32,000 nucleotides of DNA from Roseiflexus castenholzii DSM 13941 (GTDB lineage: Bacteria > Chloroflexota > Chloroflexia > Chloroflexales > Roseiflexaceae). Position 1 is the first letter of the stretch. The number at the start of each line of letters is the position of its first letter. Positions 21,176-32,000 of this stretch are shown piece by piece. A model generated the notes under the pieces. The model was not told the origin of the DNA and made no database searches. It saw nothing but the letters and a program-made list of their open reading frames with translations. Location: the NCBI RefSeq assembly GCF_000017805.1, contig NC_009767.1, positions 2,702,880-2,734,879 of the forward strand, written 5' to 3'. A program made the position numbers and the translations under genes.

Positions 21176-21194
21176 TGCGTGCGGAGACGATGAT

Positions 21195-21238
21195 AAATCC
21201 TATATGATTAGGGTAACATGCTATAGGATTTTTGTCAA
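21195..21238 (-). promoter_or_regulatory. predicted GntR-operon promoter (TTGACA-17-TACCCT on minus strand) overlapped by a perfect 10-bp inverted repeat (candidate operator)
   Basis: The arms are AAATCCTATA (21195-21204) and TATAGGATTT (21222-21231), with a 17-bp spacer. On the minus strand the -35 box TTGACA is at 21238-21233 and the -10 box TACCCT is at 21215-21210, so the repeat brackets the spacer, the -10 box and the start-site region. Confidence 0.4.
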
Positions 21239-21593
21239 GCGCCGCAAAAATGCGGGTAGGGCTTCTTAGAAGTCTTATCATTGAGATGCGCAATCAGGTA
21301 AAAGCCAATGAAGGCTGAGCAGAAATTGCGCGCCGGGCGTCGGGGATGGAAGGGGAGGGATACTGCCGCAATACTCAGGCCTGCTCCAGCGCTCCCCCGT
21401 GCCATCGACTCAAGGCATGCCAAACGGTGGTCAGTACCGGAATTCGTTCAGCCACTCGCAATCTCAATTGTGGATATGGGAGTGGTGTCTTGTCTCGTTC
21501 ACGCGCCCATTACCACTTCCCTCGCAAGGAACGCTCTCCGTGCATGGCTGCCAAAAGCAACATCGCCCATCGCTCATAGAGGGTCTATAGACA

Positions 21594-21695
21594 TCCTTGC
21601 CTCCCACGTGGATTCGGGCGTCGTTGTGACGCGGGTGTCATCCGCGAGGTCGCTAATGGGGCGATGTCTGTCCTTGCCTCCCACGTGGATACGGG
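21594..21695. repeat. 25-bp direct repeat TCCTTGCCTCCCACGTGGAT(T/A)CGGG, two copies 77 bp apart
   Basis: The copies lie at 21594-21618 and 21671-21695 with 24 of 25 positions identical. Each contains the palindrome CACGTG. They sit in a non-coding region. Confidence 0.6.
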
Positions 21696-21819
21696 ATAGC
21701 CTGGAACGCCTGTAAAACGCTTTGTGGCTGCATCTCCATTACCTTCGCAACAATGATGATGGCTTAATTTGACCCAAAAATTAATTCTTTTAAAAGCTCT
21801 ACCGCTCTTACATAAGGTA

Positions 21820-21848
21820 TTGTCTACCGCTATTTGTTATGATATAAT
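21820..21848 (+). promoter_or_regulatory. extended -10 sigma-70-like promoter, TTGTCT-17-(TGA)TATAAT
   Basis: TTGTCT lies at 21820-21825, followed by a 17-nt spacer ending in TGA and a perfect TATAAT at 21843-21848. It is embedded in the most AT-rich stretch of the window and lies about 310 nt upstream of the SARP-like gene. Confidence 0.45.
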
Positions 21849-22163
21849 CTCAAAAGCGGGCGTATCACTCCATTTTTACTACTGGACCCGTTTCGGTGTA
21901 CGTAGCGCACTGCTTACGTTCCCTCACGCAAGCAGACTGGCACAAGGCAGGTACAGCAGTACATTCTTTGTGCAATTCGTCGCTGATGAACGCTGACCTC
22001 GAATCGTATCATTGCAAGGCGCGCCGGCGCCGCAGCACCTTCCCGCACGTGAGAAGAGGGCTTCGCTGGCGCTTGCGATGATACCGAAGGCGGCGTCTTG
22101 CTGTTCGACGAGCGTATTCCCACGATATGACCGGGATCGAGACAGGTTACGCATCATCTGCTC

Positions 22164-23165
22164 ATGAGACACGACTTGCTTGATCTGTGCCTGCCGCTTT
22201 TGCTCTACGCTGATGAGATGGTTCAGCGTCAGGCGACGCTGATCCTGATGACGACCTTTGGCACCCACGCCTTTACTCTGTTACGTCGTCGTCTTGGCGC
22301 GAGCGACCCGGATGCGTGCCGCGAAGCAACAGAAGCGCTCCGCGTGCTGGAGCGTCATAGCGGGCACCCCGCAGCGTATCGCCCTTTTCGCGGGATTCAC
22401 ATCGAATGTTTGGGCACATTCCATGTCTATGTCGGCAACCAGGAGATTCTGCCGCATCATTGGGCGCAAGCAAACGGGAGTCGCGCCGGTAGTCGCAAAG
22501 TCCAGGCTGTTCTGGCATATCTGGTGCATCGTGGGCGCCACGGCGCCACGTCGGAAGAAATACTGGCAGCCGTGTGGGACTCAACCGGCAGCGCTGGCGC
22601 TCTGGCACGCACCATTACTGCGCTGCGCCGCACGATTGAACAATTTGGCGGTTCAGAACTGGCAGAGCGCGCGCTGGTGTATGCAGACGGGCGCTACATC
22701 CTGAAACCCACGGCGTATACGAGTGATGTCCAGGCATTTGAACAGGCAATCCATGTCGCCGAACAAACGGAAAGTGAGCGCGATCTTGCGACGGCGGCGC
22801 CGATTTATCGTCACGCATGCGCCCTCTACAACGGTAACTATATGGCAATGATCAAGATGGCTGCCGATGACATCGAGGAACGACGGGTCGAGTTACTCAA
22901 TGCGTTCCTTAATGCGATCGAACGTCAGGCAGAACACGAGTATCAGAATGGCAATGATGACCGGTGTCTCGCGCTCTGTCGTCAGGGTCTTCGGTTTGAT
23001 CCTTCCGATAGCGCAATCACGCTCTGGAAACTGCGTTGCCTGGCGCGCCAGAGACGGATCAATGAGGTGAAACGCGAGTACTGGCGCTATCTGCGCTCCC
23101 TTGGCGTTCCACCCGATGCTGAAGACCCGGTCGTGCTTTGGATGAACGCACATTCCTCTCGGTGA
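22164..23165 (+). CDS. SARP/AfsR-DnrI-like transcriptional regulator (OmpR-type winged helix + BTAD domain) with short helical N-terminal extension
   Basis: The segment IHIECLGTFHVYVGNQEI ... RKVQAVLAYLVHRGRHGATSEEILAAVW ... LRRTIE is the wHTH. The segment DVQAFEQAI ... ALYNGNYMA ... RCLALCRQGLRFDPSDSAITLWKLRCLARQRRINEVKREYWRYLRSL is a BTAD/TPR-like helical domain. Confidence 0.75.
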   Translation: MRHDLLDLCLPLLLYADEMVQRQATLILMTTFGTHAFTLLRRRLGASDPDACREATEALRVLERHSGHPAAYRPFRGIHIECLGTFHVYVGNQEILPHHWAQANGSRAGSRKVQAVLAYLVHRGRHGATSEEILAAVWDSTGSAGALARTITALRRTIEQFGGSELAERALVYADGRYILKPTAYTSDVQAFEQAIHVAEQTESERDLATAAPIYRHACALYNGNYMAMIKMAADDIEERRVELLNAFLNAIERQAEHEYQNGNDDRCLALCRQGLRFDPSDSAITLWKLRCLARQRRINEVKREYWRYLRSLGVPPDAEDPVVLWMNAHSSR

Positions 23166-23382: not shown

Positions 23383-24084
23383 ATGGAATATGAATTTGAA
23401 GTGTGCTGGGGACCATCTCAGTGCAAAACGGTCGTTCGCGCACCATATCAAACGATTAGTGAAGTTATCGAAACCTTAGTCGTCCAACTGAACCTGCCAC
23501 GTTATGATGCGCGAGAGCAACGTATTGAGTATGGTCTGTATCGGGACCGTGAGGAGAAACGGGAACGCATTCAAGACACGCAAACGCTGGCGCAGGCGCG
23601 GATTCGTGCTGGCCGTGTCTACATTGCTAATGTTACAGCGCCCTGGTGGCAGACCAAGGCGACCGAGACGCCGCCGCAGAAATCTGGCACCGATCGGTTG
23701 CCCCGCCGTAAATTGCCGGTTACGCCGTCGCGATCATACGTCTGTCGGCTTCAACTGGCGCCGAACTGTGTTGTCGTCGTGCAGGGAGATTACCTGGAAC
23801 TGAACCGCAACTATCTGTCGGAAAAACTTCCGTCAGCGATGGTTCTTGCGGAGAAAGCGCGTGTCTTCAGTGGGTACAACTCGCGCTTGATGCATGTCAG
23901 TCGTACCCGCCATTGTGATCTTTTTCGACAGCACGAACAGTGGTACATTCGCGCTCACAAGCCAACCTATGTCAATGGTCAGGTGCTCAATCATGGACAG
24001 ACGTCTGTTATTCAGCCGCCAGGAACGACGATTGTTCTCGGGCAAGGCGGGTGGAGCGTCACCGTTGAACTGATTGAGCAGTAG
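23383..24084 (+). CDS. hypothetical protein: N-terminal ubiquitin-like (YukD/EsaB-like) beta-grasp candidate + C-terminal degenerate FHA-like domain
   Basis: The N-terminal ~90 aa (EFEVCWGPSQCKTVVRAPYQTISEVIETLVVQLNLP ... TLAQARIRAGRVYI) has the alternating pattern of small beta-grasp proteins. A basic/Pro linker follows. The C-terminal part, HVSRTRHCDLFRQHEQWYIRA..TYVNGQVL....IQPPGTTIVLG, follows the FHA consensus (SxxH, NG, final hxhG) with one extra residue in the SxxH motif. Confidence 0.55.
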   Translation: MEYEFEVCWGPSQCKTVVRAPYQTISEVIETLVVQLNLPRYDAREQRIEYGLYRDREEKRERIQDTQTLAQARIRAGRVYIANVTAPWWQTKATETPPQKSGTDRLPRRKLPVTPSRSYVCRLQLAPNCVVVVQGDYLELNRNYLSEKLPSAMVLAEKARVFSGYNSRLMHVSRTRHCDLFRQHEQWYIRAHKPTYVNGQVLNHGQTSVIQPPGTTIVLGQGGWSVTVELIEQ

Positions 24085-24154
24085 CGGCTCTCCCGGTCGC
24101 ATAGCGCCGTGATAGCACATATTGTCATCGCATTACAGAGGAGGTTTCATCACG

Positions 24155-24436
24155 ATGGCGCCGATCAGTCTTGATCCAGAACAGGCACGCTCGACTGCAT
24201 CCACCTTTGATGGATGTAAGGGAACAATTGAGGGTGAATTGAGCCGCATGATGGGTTCGGTGAACGAAGTGCTGGCGACCTGGTCGGGGCAGAGTCGTCA
24301 GCAGTTTGAGGCAGAGTGGGATCAGTGGACGAATCGCCTGCGCAATATGATGGAAGAGTTGCAGGGTCTGGCAAACGGGTTGCGCCGCGAGGCTGACGAG
24401 TTCGAGTCGGTGGACCGGTCGTTTGTAAGCGCTTAA
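24155..24436 (+). CDS. WXG100 family (ESAT-6/EsxA-like) protein, 93 aa
   Basis: Start is set at the ATG at 24155 (MAPISLDPEQ), after GGAGG. It is about 100 aa and predicted all-helical, with a central W-S-G turn (LATWSGQSRQQFEAEW) and the C-terminal tail ADEFESVDRSFVSA. It lies immediately upstream of the FtsK/SpoIIIE ATPase. Confidence 0.85.
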   Translation: MAPISLDPEQARSTASTFDGCKGTIEGELSRMMGSVNEVLATWSGQSRQQFEAEWDQWTNRLRNMMEELQGLANGLRREADEFESVDRSFVSA

Positions 24437-24469
24437 GCGCTCCTTCAAAGGCGCGGAGGTACTACATCC

Positions 24470-27400
24470 GTGAGCGCATCGGAAGGTCTTGTGTCTTCGC
24501 GCCAATCACTTCTTTCTACACGCACTACGCTTTCCAGCAACCACGGACAACCTATGCTGGCGCCTTCTGATATGCGGGCTTCGAAGGATGACACAGGCGG
24601 ACCAGAGACATTTAACCGACCGCCACGCATCCTTCGCATCCTACCGACCGATGAGATCGAAATTCCTGCGCCCCCCGCGCCTCCGCCCCTCGCGCTCTCG
24701 GCGAGTCTCGGCTTTATTCTGATTCCGGCGGTGACCGGCGTGTTTTACCTGATTGCGCTGGTGGCGCGCGGCGGGCAAGGCGGGAGCGTTTGGTTTTCGC
24801 TCCCGATCATCATTATCTCGTTTGTCAGCGTTGGATTTGGCGTCTGGAATTATATCACACAGCGTCGTGTTCAGGAGCGGGCACGTCTTGAGTACGCCAA
24901 TGCCTATGCCGAGACGCTTGCGCAGGTGCGCGCCCATCTGCGACGCCTTGATGACGATCAGCGCCGTGTGCGTGAAGAGAATGATCCTGACCCTGCCGCA
25001 TTAATGGATATTGCTGGCGGACGCGGCGCTGATGCGCTGCCTGAAGCGCGCCTCTGGGAACGCCGCCCACATGATGACGACTTTCTGCGACTCCGCGTCG
25101 GGCGTGGCGATCTTCCCACGAGCATTGCCATTAAGCCGCCGCGCGCCAATCAGTTTCAGTACTCGCCAGAACTGCGGCAGGCGCTCGATCTGGCGCGCGA
25201 GTTCTCCATCGTCCGCAATGTTCCGGTGACCCTGCCGCTGCGCGAGCGTGGATCGATGGGCATTGCCGGTAGTGATGAAAGGGTTATATCGTTCGTTTAT
25301 GCGCTCGTCTGGCAGATCGTGGTGCATCATGCGCCAAATGAGGTTCGACTGGCGGCTTTCTGGAGTATCCGCTTCGATTCCTTCTGGTCATGGCTGCGTT
25401 GGCTTCCGCATACGCGCGCTTTTGATGATGAGTCATATCGTTTGCTGGCGCGCTACGATGGCGATCCTGAGCATTTGATCCAGGTGAGGGAGAGCCTTCA
25501 GCGTGAACTGCGCCAGCGCAGCGAGTATGGCGCCGCCAACCGGCCGCACGTGGTCGTCATCCTCGACAGTTACCCGGATTTTGGCGCCCGTGACGACATG
25601 TTTGGCGACCTGATCGTGCGCGGACGCGATTTGAAATTCAGTGTGTTGTGCCTGGTCAACGACGCGCGGCAGACGCCAGGCGATTGCGACGGTTACATCG
25701 AACTGGCATCACGATCAACATTGGCTTTTGCCGGAGTTGGTGGCGGGTATCAGAAGTTCATTCCCGATACCGTATCGCGCGATGATAGCGACCGTCTGGC
25801 GCGTCGTCTGGCGACCGTCACACAGGTCATGCTAGACGCGCGCCGTGAACTGCCACGTAGTGTGCGTTTCTCGACCATCCTGGGTCTTGGAGAGTTGAAA
25901 AGTTATAAGCCAGACAGTTGGTGGTGCGACCCGGAAAATCCATCTGATAGCTGGCATCCGGCGCCTGTCGGCATGACCGGACCTGATGTGCATCAGGATC
26001 GTTTGCTGATCAACCTCAACGAAGGATTCCATGGCGTGCATGGCATCGTTGCCGGCACGACCGGCTCCGGTAAGAGTGAATTCCTGCTCACCTTCCTGAT
26101 GTCGCTGGCAGTGCTGCATAGCCCGGATCGCCTGAACCTGATGCTGATTGACTTCAAAGGTGGCGCAACGTTCAAGGACCTTGAGAACCTGCCGCACACC
26201 GTCGGCATGGTCACCGATCTCGAAGGATACCAGGCAGAACGCGCCCTGCTGGCGATCAACAGTGAACTTGATCGCCGCAAAAACCGGCTACAACGGGTTG
26301 GCGCCGCAAATATTCGTGAGTATCGCCGCAAGCAGCGCAGCGAACCCTCCCTCGAGCACATTCCGAATCTGATGATCGTGATTGATGAGTTCGATGAGTT
26401 GGTGCGCGATTACCCGGACTTTGTCAATGAGTTGATTCGGGTTGCCAAACAAGGACGTAGCCTTGGTGTCCATCTCTTGTTCGCCACCCAGCAACCATCA
26501 CAGGTCAAGGAAGGATTGCTCCGCAATCTGACGTATTGGATTGCTCTGCGCGTCACCTCCCCGGACGACAGCAAAACGATGGTGTCGATCCCCGATGCGG
26601 CATATCTGACGACCGAAACCCCAGGACGTGGTTACTTCCGGGTCAATAAGCAGGTAGTCGCTTTTCAGTCGGCGCGCGTTACGATTCCTTATCAACCGTT
26701 TGAACAGGGCGAGTCGTATGGCGAAGTTGACATCACCGGTCGACGACGGGTGATCAGCGCCCAAGACCTTGGCATTGAGCGATTTGTCGATAGCGTGGCT
26801 TCGATATGTGACCACTACCATCATGATGCAAATGCACTCCATGCTATGGTGGTAAAGGTGCTTGATCAGTATGAGCAGGCGCTGCAACGCCGTGAACTGC
26901 CACAGCCGGTGTCTGATGATCGTCGGACGTTTCAGTCCATTATTGACAATGCCCTCAGACGTTATCTTGAGGTTTGTCAACACGCCGATGTCAGTCCGAC
27001 TGATGAAGGACGAGCGATCATCCGCACCATGGTGGCGCAGTTGCAGGGAAAACATGAGGTTGATACCGAGTTGGCTCTGATTGCGCAGGCAATGGAACAA
27101 GCGCGCAGTCCGCAGTATGCTGCCAGCAAGTATCGTGTCTGGACGATGCCGCTGCCCGCTGACATTCCACTGGTGACGCTTCTCGACCAGGCGCCGGCGG
27201 ACCATTGGATGAAAGCGCCAGTCGGTCTGCTCGACTATCCAACGCGCGCTGAGCAGCGGCCGTTGGTGCTCGATCTGATAGGCGAACACGGCAATGTGCT
27301 GGTGGTCGGCGCGCCGCGTTCGGGCAAAACAGTGTTGCTGCGCACCCTCATGCTGGCGTTAGCGATTAATCATTCGCCGAAGGACCTCTGGATCTACACC

Positions 27401-29209
27401 ATCGATTCCAACGGACGCGGTTGTGGCATGGCGCTGTCGACGGAGCCTGCCGATGATCCACGCGACCGGGTTCTGCCTCACCTTGCTGACAGGCTGACTC
27501 CCCAGGACAGTGCGCGCATCGAGCGGTTGCTGGTTGAACTCGATGCCGCAATTGAGGATCGTCGGCGGTTGTTCCGGGAATATGGCGCTGATACGCTTCA
27601 CGACTATCGTCAGCGCCACTCGCGCAATCCATCATTGCCGTCGCCGCCGCCGGTCATTCTTGTGGTGATCGACACTATTGCCGATCTGGTCGACGCTCAA
27701 CCTGAATCGACGATCGAGTCGTTCCTCGCCATCATTCGGGAAGCGCGATCATACGGTATCGCATTTGTCGCAACAGCAGGAACGGCAAAGGAAGTCAGTC
27801 GCTGGCAGGGATTGTTTGAGACCCGTATTGTCTTGCGCGTCAGTGATGAGAACGACTCCGATGCTCTGCTTGGCAAAAAGGTCGCTTTTCGCATTCGCGC
27901 CGATCAACCAGGGCGCGCGTTCTTGCGCACGTCCAACGGTCCGGTGGAGTTGCATATTGCGTTTCCGGCGCTGCGCGACACGCAGCAGTACGCGCGCGGC
28001 AGGCAGCCCGATGATATGATGCGGTATACCAATCTCGAGGAGCAGCAACTTGCGCATGCGATCAAGATTGCTGCGCGTCGCTATCGCGCCCTTTCCTCCT
28101 TTTCTCTGCCGCACCCATTGCGTCTACTGCCGGAACGCATCGAACTCAAAGAACTCCTTGACGAGACGACGCCTCCGGCTATTCCCTTTGCGCGCGATAA
28201 TCTTACGCTGCGTCCGGTGCTGCTCGATTTCGATGGCGGTATGAACCATCTGTTGATTGCCGGCGGACCGGATAGCGGCAAATCCGAAGCGTTGCGCGCC
28301 ATCCTCTGTGCGCTGGCGCTGCGCTCGACACCGGATCAAACCCGGTTCGTTCTGGTTGATTATCGTCGCAAAACGCTGGACATTTTCGCTAAATCACCCT
28401 TTGCGGGCGAATACCCTGTCAAAATACCCGATCATCCTGTGCCTGCCCCGACCTCATTTGCGAATGCCAAGGGGGAGCAACGCGCGGTCACACTCGTGAC
28501 GACTGAAGCCGAACTGGCGGGGTTGTGCATGGCGCTGCTCGATGATTTGCAGAAACGGGTGAAGGATGGAGTTGCCGAGCCACGCCTGGTTTTGGTAGTC
28601 AATGACCTCGACTTGATGATTGGTAGGGAGCCGGAGTACCTGGCGTCCCTGGCATCTTATGCTATGCGTGGCAGCGATATCGGATTCCATGTGATCCTGG
28701 CAGCCACCGATTTTTCGTCCTTGCAGAATAATCAATTGGTCAAGGCTATTCGCACAGAACGCTGCGGGCTGTATTTGGGCAAACCGGTTGAGGCGGGAAG
28801 CGATACGCCGAATATTGCCGGAGTTGGCGTCAAGTGGACGAAAACCCTGGCAAAGGCGCAGTTTCCTCCAGGTCGTGGACTGGCGCTGGTGCGCGGACAA
28901 CAGATGCTGGTGCAGGTCGCCCTGGCTACCTCCGATCTGCTCAATACGCTGGTCTGTCCGCCACAAAACGTCGCTGCCGACGACCATTCTGCGATGAGCG
29001 GCACAGCCGACAGCCGCGAGTTTGTTGACGGCGCGGCGATCACCGACCTGTGCGCAGTGCCGGAGTGCATCGACGGCGATCATCCGTTGCGTGGCGAGGT
29101 CGGTCAGTTGCCGGATTTACAGACGGTTACTGCGTTTAGCAATGGCGCCTCTGCTGCCATTCAATCCTCGGACGGCAATCAAGAGTCGGACAACCGGAGG
29201 GAGTTATGA
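24470..29209 (+). CDS. eccC: type VII secretion FtsK/SpoIIIE-family ATPase, EccC/EssC-type (2 TM + degenerate DUF module + three P-loop domains)
   Basis: GTG at 24470 follows GGAGG. It has the conserved N-terminal FNRPPRILRILPTDEIEIPAPP motif and two TM helices (about aa 78-127). A degenerate NTPase-like module (IAGSDERV ... VVVILDSYPDF) follows. D1 has GTTGSGKS (nt 26054-26077) and MIVIDEFDE. D2 has GAPRSGKT and VVIDTIAD. D3 has GGPDSGKS and LVVNDLD. Confidence 0.9.
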   Translation: MSASEGLVSSRQSLLSTRTTLSSNHGQPMLAPSDMRASKDDTGGPETFNRPPRILRILPTDEIEIPAPPAPPPLALSASLGFILIPAVTGVFYLIALVARGGQGGSVWFSLPIIIISFVSVGFGVWNYITQRRVQERARLEYANAYAETLAQVRAHLRRLDDDQRRVREENDPDPAALMDIAGGRGADALPEARLWERRPHDDDFLRLRVGRGDLPTSIAIKPPRANQFQYSPELRQALDLAREFSIVRNVPVTLPLRERGSMGIAGSDERVISFVYALVWQIVVHHAPNEVRLAAFWSIRFDSFWSWLRWLPHTRAFDDESYRLLARYDGDPEHLIQVRESLQRELRQRSEYGAANRPHVVVILDSYPDFGARDDMFGDLIVRGRDLKFSVLCLVNDARQTPGDCDGYIELASRSTLAFAGVGGGYQKFIPDTVSRDDSDRLARRLATVTQVMLDARRELPRSVRFSTILGLGELKSYKPDSWWCDPENPSDSWHPAPVGMTGPDVHQDRLLINLNEGFHGVHGIVAGTTGSGKSEFLLTFLMSLAVLHSPDRLNLMLIDFKGGATFKDLENLPHTVGMVTDLEGYQAERALLAINSELDRRKNRLQRVGAANIREYRRKQRSEPSLEHIPNLMIVIDEFDELVRDYPDFVNELIRVAKQGRSLGVHLLFATQQPSQVKEGLLRNLTYWIALRVTSPDDSKTMVSIPDAAYLTTETPGRGYFRVNKQVVAFQSARVTIPYQPFEQGESYGEVDITGRRRVISAQDLGIERFVDSVASICDHYHHDANALHAMVVKVLDQYEQALQRRELPQPVSDDRRTFQSIIDNALRRYLEVCQHADVSPTDEGRAIIRTMVAQLQGKHEVDTELALIAQAMEQARSPQYAASKYRVWTMPLPADIPLVTLLDQAPADHWMKAPVGLLDYPTRAEQRPLVLDLIGEHGNVLVVGAPRSGKTVLLRTLMLALAINHSPKDLWIYTIDSNGRGCGMALSTEPADDPRDRVLPHLADRLTPQDSARIERLLVELDAAIEDRRRLFREYGADTLHDYRQRHSRNPSLPSPPPVILVVIDTIADLVDAQPESTIESFLAIIREARSYGIAFVATAGTAKEVSRWQGLFETRIVLRVSDENDSDALLGKKVAFRIRADQPGRAFLRTSNGPVELHIAFPALRDTQQYARGRQPDDMMRYTNLEEQQLAHAIKIAARRYRALSSFSLPHPLRLLPERIELKELLDETTPPAIPFARDNLTLRPVLLDFDGGMNHLLIAGGPDSGKSEALRAILCALALRSTPDQTRFVLVDYRRKTLDIFAKSPFAGEYPVKIPDHPVPAPTSFANAKGEQRAVTLVTTEAELAGLCMALLDDLQKRVKDGVAEPRLVLVVNDLDLMIGREPEYLASLASYAMRGSDIGFHVILAATDFSSLQNNQLVKAIRTERCGLYLGKPVEAGSDTPNIAGVGVKWTKTLAKAQFPPGRGLALVRGQQMLVQVALATSDLLNTLVCPPQNVAADDHSAMSGTADSREFVDGAAITDLCAVPECIDGDHPLRGEVGQLPDLQTVTAFSNGASAAIQSSDGNQESDNRREL

Positions 29210-30054
29210 CCGAGTATGAACTGTGGCGCTATCTCGAGCAGTATGCGCAGATGAGCAACGCCTGGTGGTACTCTGTTGCCGTATTACCGGCCACGATCAT
29301 TTCGGCCTGCGCCTATTTCCTGATGTGGCTGGCGCTGCGTCGCACTCGTCAGCTGCCGAAGATGTTTCTCTGGCTCTGCGTCGCCAGCCTGCCGACGATT
29401 CTGGTGGCGCCGTCGTTTTATGTCAGCACCAACCTGACCGATGCGCTGGCGCGCGTCGGGTTCGGCATGCCGGCGAGCGAACAGCAGATCAGCCGCACCG
29501 TTGCCCTTCAGATCGGTGCGTACCTCAGTCAGGTCGCCACACTTGGCATCGTCGGCGCATCACTGGCGTTCGTGACGCTCATCGCCGCCATCCTGGTCGG
29601 CGGGTACGCGCCGCCACAGGTAATCCAGAGCATTCAGTCCATATCACAGAGTTTTTCAAAGGCGATGACACGCGCTTTCGGACCGTCACGTGAAGCGCGG
29701 GTTGCCAACTCAAAATATGGCGTTCTCACGGTTACACGCGGCGGAGCGCAGCAAGGAGCGAAGTTCAGCGTAATCAACAGCGCAATTATTGGCAAAGTTG
29801 AAGCGCACATTGTCGTCACCGATCCGGTCGTGTCGCGTAAGCACGCGCGTCTTGAGGTGAAGAACGATACGGTCTTTCTCGTCGACCTGGGAAGCACCAA
29901 TGGCACGTTCGTCAAGCGCAGTGGACGCGAGTTTGAACTGAACGGCGACCCGTTTGAGTTACGCCATGGCGATTATATCTATCTCGGCGTTCCATCCGAA
30001 CCAGAGTCGGTGGAACTGATCTATGAGCGTTCTCCCGCAGGAGGTCAGTCATGA
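29206..30054 (+). CDS. polytopic membrane protein with C-terminal FHA domain
   Basis: ATGA overlap with the ATPase stop, and GGAGGGAG upstream. It has about four N-terminal hydrophobic helices. The canonical FHA reads SAIIGK....VVTDPVVSRKHARLEVKNDTVFLVDLGSTNGTFV ... GDYIYLG. Confidence 0.85.
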   Translation: MTEYELWRYLEQYAQMSNAWWYSVAVLPATIISACAYFLMWLALRRTRQLPKMFLWLCVASLPTILVAPSFYVSTNLTDALARVGFGMPASEQQISRTVALQIGAYLSQVATLGIVGASLAFVTLIAAILVGGYAPPQVIQSIQSISQSFSKAMTRAFGPSREARVANSKYGVLTVTRGGAQQGAKFSVINSAIIGKVEAHIVVTDPVVSRKHARLEVKNDTVFLVDLGSTNGTFVKRSGREFELNGDPFELRHGDYIYLGVPSEPESVELIYERSPAGGQS

Positions 30055-31277
30055 GGCGTCTGTTTGCGCTCTGTGCCATCCTGGGAATGCTGACGCTGTT
30101 GACGCCATCAGCGTATGCGCAATCTCAGGGGTGTCGCGGGATAGAGGTGCATGCGGCACAGATGGAATTTCCCAACGTCGTGGTCCAGTTTAGCGTCTGT
30201 GACGCGGCGGGCAACCGCATTGCCGGGATTGATCGAAGCGCCATTCGTCTGACCGAAGATGGGCGTCCGGTCGCCGACTTCGATATGGAGTCCATCGTCG
30301 CCGATGCACAAACGCCGGTGCAGAGCGTTGCGCTGAGCAACGGCGGCGCATCCTTTATGCTGACGACCACAGGCGCAAGCATCGGGATTGTATTCGATGC
30401 AACGCAACTGCTCAATGGGAGCGGTGCACAGGCGCGCAACAGCATTGGCGAGGGGCGTGCCGCTATCGAAGCATTCTTGCTGGAGGAAGGCGAACCGCCA
30501 CCGCCGCGCACTCGCTCGCCAGGCAACATAGAGCACATCGGGCTTTTTATCCCCGTCGATCAGCCGGATCAGTCATTGCAGCCAGAGACCCTGCCGGCGT
30601 TTACGCAAGATCGGTATGCTGTGATTAACACACTGCGGCAGAGTCTGCCGATTCGCCAGAAAAAAACCAGCTTGAACGCCGCCATTCAGTCGGCTATCGA
30701 AGCAACGGCGCGTGATGCGCAGCAACGCGGCGCCGAAGCAGCAGTGCTGGTGGTGAGCGATGGCGGCGACGCGCTGACCGGCGACACGTTCACAGCGCTG
30801 ATCGCACAAGCGCAGCAGCGGCGTGTGCGGATTGTTGCGTTTGGTTTTGGAACGGATAAGGCGTTGCAGAGTAATGGCTTCCGCCTGAAACAACTCGCCG
30901 AAGCGACCGGCGGCATCTACCTTGAACGACCCAACGCGCGCGCCGCAGGGGATGCCTTTCTGCGTGTTGCTGAGCCGCGACCTGCTGCACTGTATCGTGT
31001 CCGTTACAGCACGCAGATTATCGATGATGGCAAACCGCACTCGCTGGAGTTGGAAGTGAATGCGCCAGACCGGCTGATCTATCAGTTTCCGCTCACATAT
31101 GCCGGCGCCGATAGCGGCATCCGGTTGACGCCGCTTGGAGATGCGCTTCTGCGACAATATTTTGTGTTTGCTGTGCCGATTGCGCTGTTCCTTTCACTCT
31201 TTCTGACGCTGATCAGCGGTGCGATGTTCTGGTTGAGCACATCTTCTTCCGGTTTGAAAGGAAAGACACAACGCTGA
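30051..31277 (+). CDS. signal-peptide/C-terminal-TM-anchored von Willebrand factor A (vWA)-like protein
   Basis: ATGA overlap with the FHA gene. The N-terminal signal is LFALCAILGMLTLLTPSAYA. vWA-type motifs are AAVLVVSDGGDALTG, RIVAFGFGTD and LKQLAEATGGIYLE. The MIDAS position reads DATQL rather than DxSxS. The C-terminal TM is FVFAVPIALFLSLFLTLISGAMFWL. Confidence 0.65.
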   Translation: MRRLFALCAILGMLTLLTPSAYAQSQGCRGIEVHAAQMEFPNVVVQFSVCDAAGNRIAGIDRSAIRLTEDGRPVADFDMESIVADAQTPVQSVALSNGGASFMLTTTGASIGIVFDATQLLNGSGAQARNSIGEGRAAIEAFLLEEGEPPPPRTRSPGNIEHIGLFIPVDQPDQSLQPETLPAFTQDRYAVINTLRQSLPIRQKKTSLNAAIQSAIEATARDAQQRGAEAAVLVVSDGGDALTGDTFTALIAQAQQRRVRIVAFGFGTDKALQSNGFRLKQLAEATGGIYLERPNARAAGDAFLRVAEPRPAALYRVRYSTQIIDDGKPHSLELEVNAPDRLIYQFPLTYAGADSGIRLTPLGDALLRQYFVFAVPIALFLSLFLTLISGAMFWLSTSSSGLKGKTQR

Positions 31278-31286
31278 GGTGCCATT

Positions 31287-32000
31287 ATGCCTGAACTTCC
31301 GGTTCCGTCGAAACTGGGCAGATTTGAAGTGATAGAACTGATTGGCGTAGGTCTCACCGGCGAGGTGTACCAGGCGCGTGATCGCAACGGTGCTATGGTT
31401 GCACTTAAGGTGCTGGCGCGTTCAAAACAGCGTGATCCGACAGTGTTTGGTTATTTTACCAACGAACAGACGCTCCTGCGGGAAATGACGCATCATCGGC
31501 GCCATCCGCACATTGTTGAGTACGTTGCCGATAATCTCGTCCAGCCGCCCTACTACCTGGCGACGCGGCTGGTCGAAGGAGCGCGCGGGCTGGACGCCAT
31601 CATTGGCGATCGCATGCCGCTGCCGGTAGGCAAAGGCGCCCCGCAACCGGCTGCCTTCGTGGTTCGCGTTATCTCGCAGATTGCCAGCGCGCTTGACTAT
31701 TTGCACAGCGGACATCCAACCTACAGTCCGATTATCCATCGTGATGTCAAACCATCAAACATTCTCATCGACGCGTCTGGCAACGCCGTGCTGATTGATT
31801 TCAGCATTGCGAGCCATCCACATTATGCCCTGATCAACGAAAAGACCCTCGGTACGCCTGGCTATATGGCGCCAGAACAGTACACCGGCGAAGAAGTTCC
31901 GGCATCGGATCAGTTTGCGCTGGCGCTGGTGGCGCTTCACATGCTTACCGGACGTCGTCCGCTGCCGGATAAGGCAACGGCGGCGCTGAGACAGATTGAG
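31287..32000 (+). CDS. Hanks-type Ser/Thr protein kinase, 3' end cut by window edge
   Basis: It is not in the ORF track because there is no stop inside the window. The ATG at 31287 follows GAGG. My translation gives MPELPVPSKLGRFEVIELIGVGLTGEVYQARD..MVALKVL (G-loop and VAIK Lys), HRDVKPSNILID (catalytic loop), DFSIA (DFG variant) and GTPGYMAPE. The frame stays open to nt 32000. Confidence 0.9.
   Translation, partial: MPELPVPSKLGRFEVIELIGVGLTGEVYQARDRNGAMVALKVLARSKQRDPTVFGYFTNEQTLLREMTHHRRHPHIVEYVADNLVQPPYYLATRLVEGARGLDAIIGDRMPLPVGKGAPQPAAFVVRVISQIASALDYLHSGHPTYSPIIHRDVKPSNILIDASGNAVLIDFSIASHPHYALINEKTLGTPGYMAPEQYTGEEVPASDQFALALVALHMLTGRRPLPDKATAALRQIE

Follow-up and report, generated by a model that had tools for sequence, protein, structure and literature searches.

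A survey of Gram-positive bacteria (Garrett, Higginson and Palmer 2024; PMC11217815) described eight further type VII secretion system (T7SS) subtypes, T7SSc to T7SSj, equipped with kinase, PPM phosphatase, FHA and vWA components; phospho-regulation has been proposed for several of them. T7SSc of Bacillota is built from TscA-TscG and comprises a WXG100 protein, a ubiquitin-like (Ubl) protein, an ATPase without FHA domains and a transmembrane (TM) kinase, together with a vWA protein, a PPM phosphatase and an EspG-like protein. Its TscB is a small, free-standing Ubl protein, TscE is a cytoplasmic vWA protein, TscF is a cytoplasmic phosphatase, and its ATPase groups nearer actinobacterial EccC than EssC (PMC11217815). 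Threonine phosphorylation is also tied to secretion in Pseudomonas aeruginosa, where the pathway attached to the H1 type VI secretion system (T6SS) consists of PpkA, which bears an extracellular vWA domain, PppA and Fha1 (PMC3224232). Here we describe a locus that combines EccC- and WXG100-type export genes with kinase, phosphatase, FHA and vWA genes in Roseiflexus castenholzii DSM 13941, a member of the Chloroflexota. It lies in a 32,000-nucleotide stretch of contig NC_009767.1 (positions 2,702,880 to 2,734,879, forward strand), hereafter the window, to which the coordinates below refer unless another contig is named.

The generic T7SS triad of an EccC-type ATPase, a WXG100 protein and a YukD-type Ubl component is present in this locus, flanked by a conserved signalling set in which a tail-anchored kinase and a PP2C-TM-PASTA phosphatase accompany a polytopic FHA protein and a vWA protein that faces outward. 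We read the locus as the core of a type VII-like WXG100/EccC export system, restricted to class Chloroflexia as sampled, that would be gated by phosphothreonine and would export WXG100-tagged effectors; on the sequence evidence set out below, we give this reading a probability of roughly 0.6. A first-pass annotation of the same DNA had proposed a type VII-like locus outside the Actinobacteria and Firmicutes, and both the profile matches and the identity of the organism agree with it. Its remark that WXG100/FtsK pairs had been noted in surveys beyond those two phyla is likewise correct, as such pairs are on record for Chloroflexi (PMC3935865, PMC4010439, PMC10765036), and T7SS-linked toxins of Chloroflexi appear in a polymorphic-toxin survey (PMC3482391). 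No paper pairing Roseiflexus with WXG100 was found in the literature. PMC11217815 and those of its supplements that were examined contain no mention of Chloroflexota, so the Chloroflexia version appears undescribed.

Predicted core export components

Six open reading frames (ORFs) on the forward strand make up the part of the cluster that falls inside the window. The ORF list and direct reading of the sequence bear out both the co-directional arrangement that the first-pass annotation had described and its two ATGA stop/start overlaps, which join the ATPase gene to the transmembrane FHA (TM-FHA) gene (29206-29209) and the latter to the vWA gene (30051-30054).

The WXG100 gene (24155-24436, + strand) encodes a protein of 93 amino acids (aa) when read from its ATG, the mechanical ORF beginning at a TTG at 24122. 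The product matches PF06013 (E=3.7e-21) and scores 84.5 bits against TIGR03930, above the cut-off of 44.85, in keeping with its earlier description as a single WXG100 protein. Its signature motif is WSG, and W-x-G is conserved among homologues in the alignment. Relatives of the protein in the PDB are EsxB and EsxA proteins, the closest solved structure being EsxB of Bacillus anthracis (4j7j, E=5e-11).

The neighbouring gene (24470-29209, + strand) encodes the EccC-type ATPase, a protein of 1579 aa if translation begins at the GTG. Gene calls on identical contigs place the start at an alternative ATG, 24554, which gives 1551 aa; the start is uncertain because homologues are conserved only from residue 48 onwards. 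Profile searches identify three FtsK_SpoIIIE stretches and no FHA match on this protein. Both EccC equivalog-domain models pass their curated cut-offs (EccCa, 511 bits against 509; EccCb, 364 bits against 347), whereas the firmicute EssC model, at 595 bits, stays under its cut-off of 778. Hydropathy places two TM segments within residues 73-129, preceded by about 70 cytoplasmic residues. Walker A motifs at 529-536, 947-954 and 1265-1272 define three P-loop domains, and their lysines are invariant in the alignment; a Walker B Asp-Glu pair is found in domain 1 only. PDB relatives include EccC from T. curvata (4nh0, E=2e-88), YukB and EccC5, with the YukB alignment starting at YukB residue 225 and residue 47 of the query. 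The earlier identification of an EccC/EssC-type triple ATPase is thus sound, with the models placing the protein on the EccC side.

An FtsK-like ATPase encoded together with a kinase might alternatively belong to a DNA-handling or anti-phage system, either MADS-like, with counterparts of mad6 and mad8, or related to a conjugative TraB-type translocase. PADLOC does assign mad8 to the first FtsK domain (E=1e-55) and mad6 and PD-T4-6 to the kinase, and NCBIfam returns weak HerA and TraB matches. These PADLOC assignments, however, are generic matches to FtsK domains (mad8, SspH, HerA) and to the Pkinase domain, and five of the eight cluster proteins (g1, WXG100, TM-FHA, vWA and the Ubl-TM protein described below) have no PADLOC match. 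Neither a methyltransferase nor any other MADS gene lies nearby, the locus has no plasmid match, a WXG100 gene and WXG100-fused cargo genes flank the ATPase, and the EccCa and EccCb cut-offs are passed. We regard a DNA-handling or anti-phage role as very improbable.

The first gene of the cluster, g1 (23383-24084, + strand), encodes a protein of 233 aa whose sequence matches are weak (FHA, E=1e-3; YukD, E=0.045). An AlphaFold2 model built on an alignment of 11 homologues (pLDDT 76.5) shows residues 1-85 as a ubiquitin-like domain of beta-grasp fold, followed by a disordered and variable Pro-rich linker and, at 117-233, an FHA beta-sandwich. Foldseek matches to this model in the PDB include ubiquitin and SUMO (TM-score 0.7-0.8), EccD of ESX-5 (7b9f_X) and the FHA domain of APLF (TM-score 0.65). 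Because the modelled folds match ubiquitin/SUMO, EccD and FHA structures, the label 'Ubl+FHA-like' given in the first-pass annotation is correct; the model identifies g1 as a cytoplasmic fusion of a YukD-type Ubl domain and a divergent FHA domain. Over 67 aa, the N-terminus of g1 also shares 37% identity (E=1e-9) with the YukD domain of a 470-aa protein encoded downstream, making the two domains paralogues. The g1 family is tiny, with 63 clusters among 1.84 billion representatives, and nearly all of its members are 210-250 aa long. Those that carry a name come from Roseiflexus, Chloroflexus islandicus and Herpetosiphonaceae, all within the Chloroflexia.

Three features generic to T7SSs are found together in these genes: a protein of the WXG100 helical-hairpin family encoded beside the ATPase, a membrane FtsK/SpoIIIE ATPase with N-terminal TM segments and three P-loop domains, and a YukD/EsaB-type Ubl component, free or fused, here recognised from the fold of g1 and from its homology to the YukD-positive domain downstream.

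Membrane-associated signalling components

Chloroflexota are generally regarded as single-membrane bacteria. The TM-FHA gene (29206-30054, + strand) encodes a protein of 282 aa with an FHA domain at residues 180-261 (FHA, E=5e-16; Yop-YscD_cpl, E=3e-10), and its best NCBIfam match is FhaB/FipA (E=2e-11, under the cut-off of that model). The FHA assignment and polytopic character claimed for this protein at first pass both stand; the count of four TM helices is plausible, hydropathy giving three hydrophobic segments within residues 22-140, the last of which spans about 35 residues, the length of a hairpin. Four helices would place the FHA domain inside the cell, and it is accordingly predicted to be cytoplasmic. 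In the alignment, G[K/R], SR(K/R/Q)H and S-x-NGT are for the most part retained, meaning that most phosphothreonine-binding residues are kept.

The vWA gene (30051-31277, + strand) encodes a 408-aa protein that matches VWA (E=1.4e-5), VWA_3 (E=5.5e-6) and TIGR03436 (E=2.5e-10). By hydropathy it carries a signal peptide (AYA|Q) and, at 365-397, a C-terminal TM segment followed by a short basic tail, features that agree with the membrane anchor previously proposed and from which it follows that the vWA domain should face outside the cell.

The kinase gene begins at 31287 on the + strand and is cut by the window end (beyond 32000); the full-length copy, read in the identical contig L001, encodes 345 aa. 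It is a Hanks-type Ser/Thr kinase (Pkinase, E=2.6e-31), as first annotated, with an intact catalytic apparatus: the VALK lysine, HRDVKP, D(F/L)S and GTPxYMxPE are all conserved. A C-terminal TM segment at 314-345 makes the protein tail-anchored, and the kinases of relatives bear an extracellular SH3_3 (SH3b) domain.

Genes beyond the window end were read in L001 and in the 99.7% identical strain contig L088. Downstream of the kinase both encode a PP2C phosphatase in which the motifs ADGVGG, NVGDS, SDGL and DNI are kept. Its PP2C domain is followed by a TM helix, a PASTA domain outside the cell and, at the end, a long tail of low complexity. A PASTA domain on a phosphatase instead of on a kinase is unusual. 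The tail is a Gly/Ser/Thr-rich repeat whose length varies between near-identical strains, giving proteins of 650 aa and 545 aa (L088:13350-15302 and L089:10646-12283, equivalent to positions just beyond the window end).

Conservation and distribution

The order g1, WXG100, EccC, TM-FHA, vWA, kinase, PP2C is found again in five other lineages, whose ATPases are 74% (L003), 47% (L092), 42% (L005, Candidatus Chloroploca), 42% (the P0026 locus) and 36% (L007) identical to that of R. castenholzii. These relatives sometimes have genes for WXG100-fused cargo and EspG-like proteins inserted behind EccC. As a reverse check, a metagenome scan was seeded with the TM-FHA protein; it returned 13 loci, 11 of them with enough flanking sequence to be informative, and EccC lies upstream on the same strand in 10 of the 11. 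Conservation across many independent contigs places the arrangement beyond chance. The first-pass annotation had taken the FHA, vWA and kinase proteins as partners of the ATPase, and their conservation with the ATPase across relatives upholds this view.

Negative-control loci came from an alignment-based contig scan with very general motifs, which yielded almost exclusively actinobacterial EccC loci, together with six distant Chloroflexi loci. Profiles of the Ubl-FHA and vWA proteins have no match in about 74 non-Chloroflexi EccC loci (nearly all actinobacterial), one unclassified bin excepted, and none in the six other Chloroflexi loci, which are mostly of Anaerolineae type. The TM-FHA profile gives one weak match in the control loci, L042, and one Anaerolineae locus pairs EccC with FHA and kinase genes without a vWA gene. 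No Bacillota protein occurs among the 120 best ATPase relatives. As far as sampled, the subtype appears restricted to class Chloroflexia.

Several loci and one protein show other arrangements of the same domains. In an unclassified metagenome bin (L049:7406-20949), WXG100 genes and an EspG-like gene lie ahead of a 2936-aa EccC-like ORF, and after it come an FHA protein and two fusions of signal peptide, vWA, TM and FHA domains. With its FHA domain in the cytoplasm, such a fusion couples a vWA domain outside the cell to an FHA reader inside it. The protein P0068 is a 1682-aa fusion of a protein kinase domain and an FtsK/EccC-like ATPase, a hint of kinase-ATPase coupling. In L096 and L098-L100, two adjacent WXG100 genes precede EccC (for example, L099:4725-5338), compared with one in R. 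castenholzii; the TM-FHA proteins of these four loci are about 78% identical to that of R. castenholzii.

Flanking genes and probable cargo

The cluster continues past the window end, so its earlier description as 'minimal' is wrong: downstream lie the PP2C-TM-PASTA phosphatase, the 470-aa YukD-domain protein, effectors fused to WXG100 and what may be an EspG-like protein, and upstream lies a BTAD-type gene. The 470-aa protein begins with a YukD domain (PF08817, E=2.3e-5, narrowly short of the gathering score), followed by one TM segment, a Pro/Ala/Thr-rich linker and a conserved beta-rich ectodomain, and NCBI labels some members of its family 'EsaB/YukD family protein'. In the AlphaFold2 model the Ubl domain has pLDDT >90 and the ectodomain about 90. 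The best Foldseek matches are EccD5 chains, aligned over the Ubl domain and the first TM helix. Identification of this protein as EccD was considered and rejected, given its single TM segment, where EccD has 11, and its beta-rich ectodomain; by its model, it is EccD-like at the N-terminus only.

Two downstream genes are of cargo type. One encodes a 288-aa WXG100-CHAP protein, CHAP being a peptidoglycan hydrolase domain, and the other a WXG100 protein of 399 aa whose C-terminus is glycine-zipper-like. A further downstream gene encodes a 278-aa protein whose Chloroploca counterpart weakly matches the EspG family (E=8e-5). WXG100-fused genes differ in their C-termini between strains and genera, with CHAP, lipase-like and glycine-zipper versions. 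The exported effectors are probably cell-wall-active and membrane-active. In L003 (22101-22610), a 169-aa ORF joins the N-terminus of a WXG100 cargo protein to the C-terminus of the EspG-like protein, an apparent chimera that suggests deletion or recombination between cargo cassettes.

The variability of the WXG100-fused cargo points to interbacterial antagonism or wall remodelling. A developmental or cooperative role, in which export is real and serves cell-cell signalling along the filament or remodelling of the producer's own wall, would be analogous to Esx function in Streptomyces development. In favour of such a role, Roseiflexus grows as a multicellular filament, its CHAP cargo could be directed at the producer's wall, PASTA and SH3b sensors would report the status of that same wall, and no immunity gene adjoining the cargo genes was identified with confidence. 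Multiple WXG100-fused cargo genes with variable C-termini nevertheless follow the pattern of polymorphic toxins, and the Chloroflexi toxins listed in PMC3482391 are T7SS-linked. We therefore rate a developmental role as rather unlikely.

The BTAD/SARP-type gene upstream of g1 (22164-23165, + strand) encodes a 333-aa protein that matches PF03704 (E=2.5e-9) and, weakly, Trans_reg_C, and is AfsR-like in NCBIfam. Homologues occupy the same upstream position in L003, L007, L095 and L097-L100, and the protein is likely to be the regulator of the cluster.

Comparison with known secretion systems

Of the systems described so far T7SSc is the closest, and by domain content only the Roseiflexus locus resembles it. 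Both have a single WXG100 protein, an ATPase without FHA domains, a TM kinase with an intact active site, a PPM phosphatase, a YukD-type Ubl domain, a vWA protein and an EspG-like protein, the last being a possible assignment here. Both ATPases fall on the EccC side, that of Roseiflexus by passing the EccCa and EccCb models and failing that of EssC, and the EsxB that is the best solved relative of the Roseiflexus WXG100 protein comes from a T7SSc organism, B. anthracis. The differences are of phylum, topology and fusion state. T7SSc belongs to Bacillota and this locus to Chloroflexota. The Roseiflexus Ubl domain is never free-standing, being fused to FHA in g1 or to a TM segment and ectodomain in the 470-aa protein; a polytopic FHA protein is additional; the vWA protein is predicted to be extracytoplasmic and anchored, unlike TscE; and the phosphatase is membrane-anchored and bears PASTA, unlike TscF. 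Set against the Tsc proteins as they have been described, the locus falls outside T7SSc in both topology and fusion state.

The actinobacterial systems (T7SSa/ESX) share with this locus an ATPase that is EccC-like in sequence and domain order, the resemblance of the Ubl domain and TM segment of the 470-aa protein to the N-terminus of EccD5, and possibly an EspG-like chaperone. They differ in having a pair of WXG100 genes, compared with the one of R. castenholzii (some relatives have two), and in the FHA/vWA/kinase/phosphatase module, which is present in Roseiflexus. The EccB, EccE, MycP and 11-TM EccD families are absent within about 10 kb in the window and in L001, L003, L005, L007, L088 and L092.

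With the firmicute systems (T7SSb/Ess-Yuk) the locus has in common one WXG100 protein that is presumably a homodimer, a YukD-type Ubl domain, FHA domains associated with the machine, and N-terminal targeting domains of WXG/LXG style on enzyme or toxin cargo. The FHA domains of Roseiflexus sit on separate proteins and not at the ATPase N-terminus, where T7SSb has two, and the Roseiflexus kinase keeps its catalytic motifs, while EssB is a pseudokinase (PMC11217815). The EssA, EssB and EsaA families are likewise absent from flanks of about 10 kb in Roseiflexus and its relatives. Judged by the defining accessory genes within these flanks, membership of T7SSa and of T7SSb fails. The statement in the first-pass annotation that no other T7SS membrane components are present holds for EccB, EccE, MycP, EssA, EssB and EsaA within about 10 kb, and needs qualifying for EccD, whose type of Ubl domain is found in both g1 and the 470-aa protein.

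The phosphorylation pathway of the H1-T6SS offers a parallel in that it likewise equips a secretion locus with a Hanks kinase and a PP2C phosphatase, a vWA domain outside the cytoplasm and an FHA reader. The machines themselves, T6SS and EccC/WXG100, are unrelated, so the likeness is one of logic by analogy and not of family membership. The vWA domain of PpkA is fused to the kinase, whereas Roseiflexus has it on an anchored protein of its own (in L049 it is fused to FHA), and no T6SS core family (TssA-M, Hcp, VgrG) occurs in the window or its flanks.

The first-pass annotation had gone further and proposed a third architecture of WXG100 export. This claim does not survive comparison with PMC11217815, which already defines T7SSc to T7SSj with kinase, phosphatase, FHA and vWA components. 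The cluster is best filed as an undescribed variant within the recently widened T7SS family and not as a categorically new architecture.

A model for phosphothreonine-gated export

In the mechanism that we propose, a hexamer of EccC would act as motor and channel, with a WXG100 dimer as its co-substrate or activator. The two Ubl proteins would dock on EccC, as YukD and the Ubl domain of EccD do. The kinase/phosphatase pair would respond to envelope cues through PASTA, SH3b and vWA ectodomains and set a phosphothreonine mark, which the FHA proteins would read to switch on assembly or activity, a gating logic analogous to that of PpkA/PppA/Fha1 in the Pseudomonas H1 type VI system. The cargo would be WXG100-tagged enzymes or toxins used against neighbours in microbial mats. 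Coupling between the ATPase and the signalling set is supported by the ATGA overlaps of EccC with TM-FHA and of TM-FHA with vWA, by the fusions in L049 and by the kinase-FtsK fusion of P0068.

A stronger version of this model would make the locus a T7SS with a distinct core, in which EccC, the 4-TM FHA protein and the bitopic YukD-TM-ectodomain protein replace EccB/D/E or EssA/B/EsaA. Assembly would depend on phosphothreonine, with two FHA readers and a kinase/phosphatase pair equipped with wall-sensing vWA, PASTA and SH3b domains, and the Ubl protein with one TM segment would be a relative or precursor of EccD. We put this forward tentatively, as a possibility well short of even odds. If it is true, the Ubl-plus-one-TM protein would link the actinobacterial and T7SSc-like lineages.

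A number of observations weigh against the gated-export model. The FHA domain of g1 keeps only SR..H, and because the canonical Arg and Asn are missing it may not bind phosphothreonine. A candidate phospho-acceptor in the g1 linker, Thr103, whose context T-D-R-L fits the FHA pT+3 rule, was dropped: it is invariant among close relatives only and unconserved across the 39-member family. The MIDAS motif of the vWA protein, D-x-S/T-x-L/A in the alignment, is imperfect. The EspG-like chaperone is a possible assignment, drawn from a sub-threshold match (E=8e-5) in one homologue, and no experimental work on any Chloroflexota T7SS was found in the literature. Finally, the distant locus L106 (9995-15027) has TM-FHA, vWA, kinase and PP2C genes, with no EccC or WXG100 gene within 10 kb; its neighbours are tilS, hpt, an IS605-family TnpB gene, ftsH and yebC. 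Since L106 carries the four-gene module without EccC within that distance, the module can exist apart from the ATPase, and it may be regulatory or even independent, not structural.

Taken to its conclusion, this last point would make TM-FHA, vWA, kinase and PP2C-PASTA an autonomous envelope or wall signalling module, comparable to the actinobacterial FhaB/PstP/PknB cluster, that regulates growth or wall synthesis and not secretion. The housekeeping neighbours of the four genes in L106, the FhaB/FipA match of the TM-FHA protein and the cell-wall-sensing nature of PASTA and SH3b domains all suit such a role. Against it stand the upstream position of EccC in 10 of the 11 informative loci, the translational coupling of the EccC and TM-FHA genes by ATGA, and the retention of the module in the cluster even where effector and chaperone genes have been inserted between it and EccC. 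The vWA-TM-FHA fusions of L049, an unrelated bin, also adjoin an EccC-like gene, and the same protein classes occur in other T7SS subtypes (PMC11217815). An independent signalling module is, in our assessment, unlikely, and gated export remains the reading that we prefer.

Other features of the window

The locus shows no compositional break and no plasmid match, and no tRNA genes were found; on these grounds an origin from a mobile element or plasmid was rejected. No Rfam family is matched in the window, and a terminator scan gave results not above shuffled expectation. Between a divergent GntR gene and the BTAD regulator lies about 1 kb without a convincing ORF (21176-22163), in which no Rfam match occurs and which contains the best promoter-like site of the region (21820-21848; 10/12 matches, extended TG). 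Far upstream, positions 1569-2512 hold a GC-rich tandem-repeat array of about 950 bp, with units of 23 and 35 bp such as CGCGCCCGGCGGGATGGCGGGAT and local GC of up to 73%. The array overlaps long ORFs on both strands, and those ORFs have no Pfam match.

Implications for type VII secretion

The biology of T7SSs is known almost wholly from Actinomycetota and Bacillota. The finding extends the recently recognised diversity of these systems and introduces no new principle. A conserved, complete-looking system in a third phylum provides an outgroup with which universal parts (EccC, WXG100 and a YukD-type Ubl domain) can be told from lineage-specific ones. Because a kinase, a phosphatase, two FHA proteins and outward sensors are tightly paired with the ATPase, the 2024 proposal that some T7SSs are switched by threonine phosphorylation, in the manner of some type VI systems, becomes testable, and R. 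castenholzii is a cultivable organism. For the biology of Roseiflexus itself, the presence of CHAP and glycine-zipper proteins tagged with WXG100 suggests that hot-spring mats are the scene of contact-zone warfare or wall remodelling.

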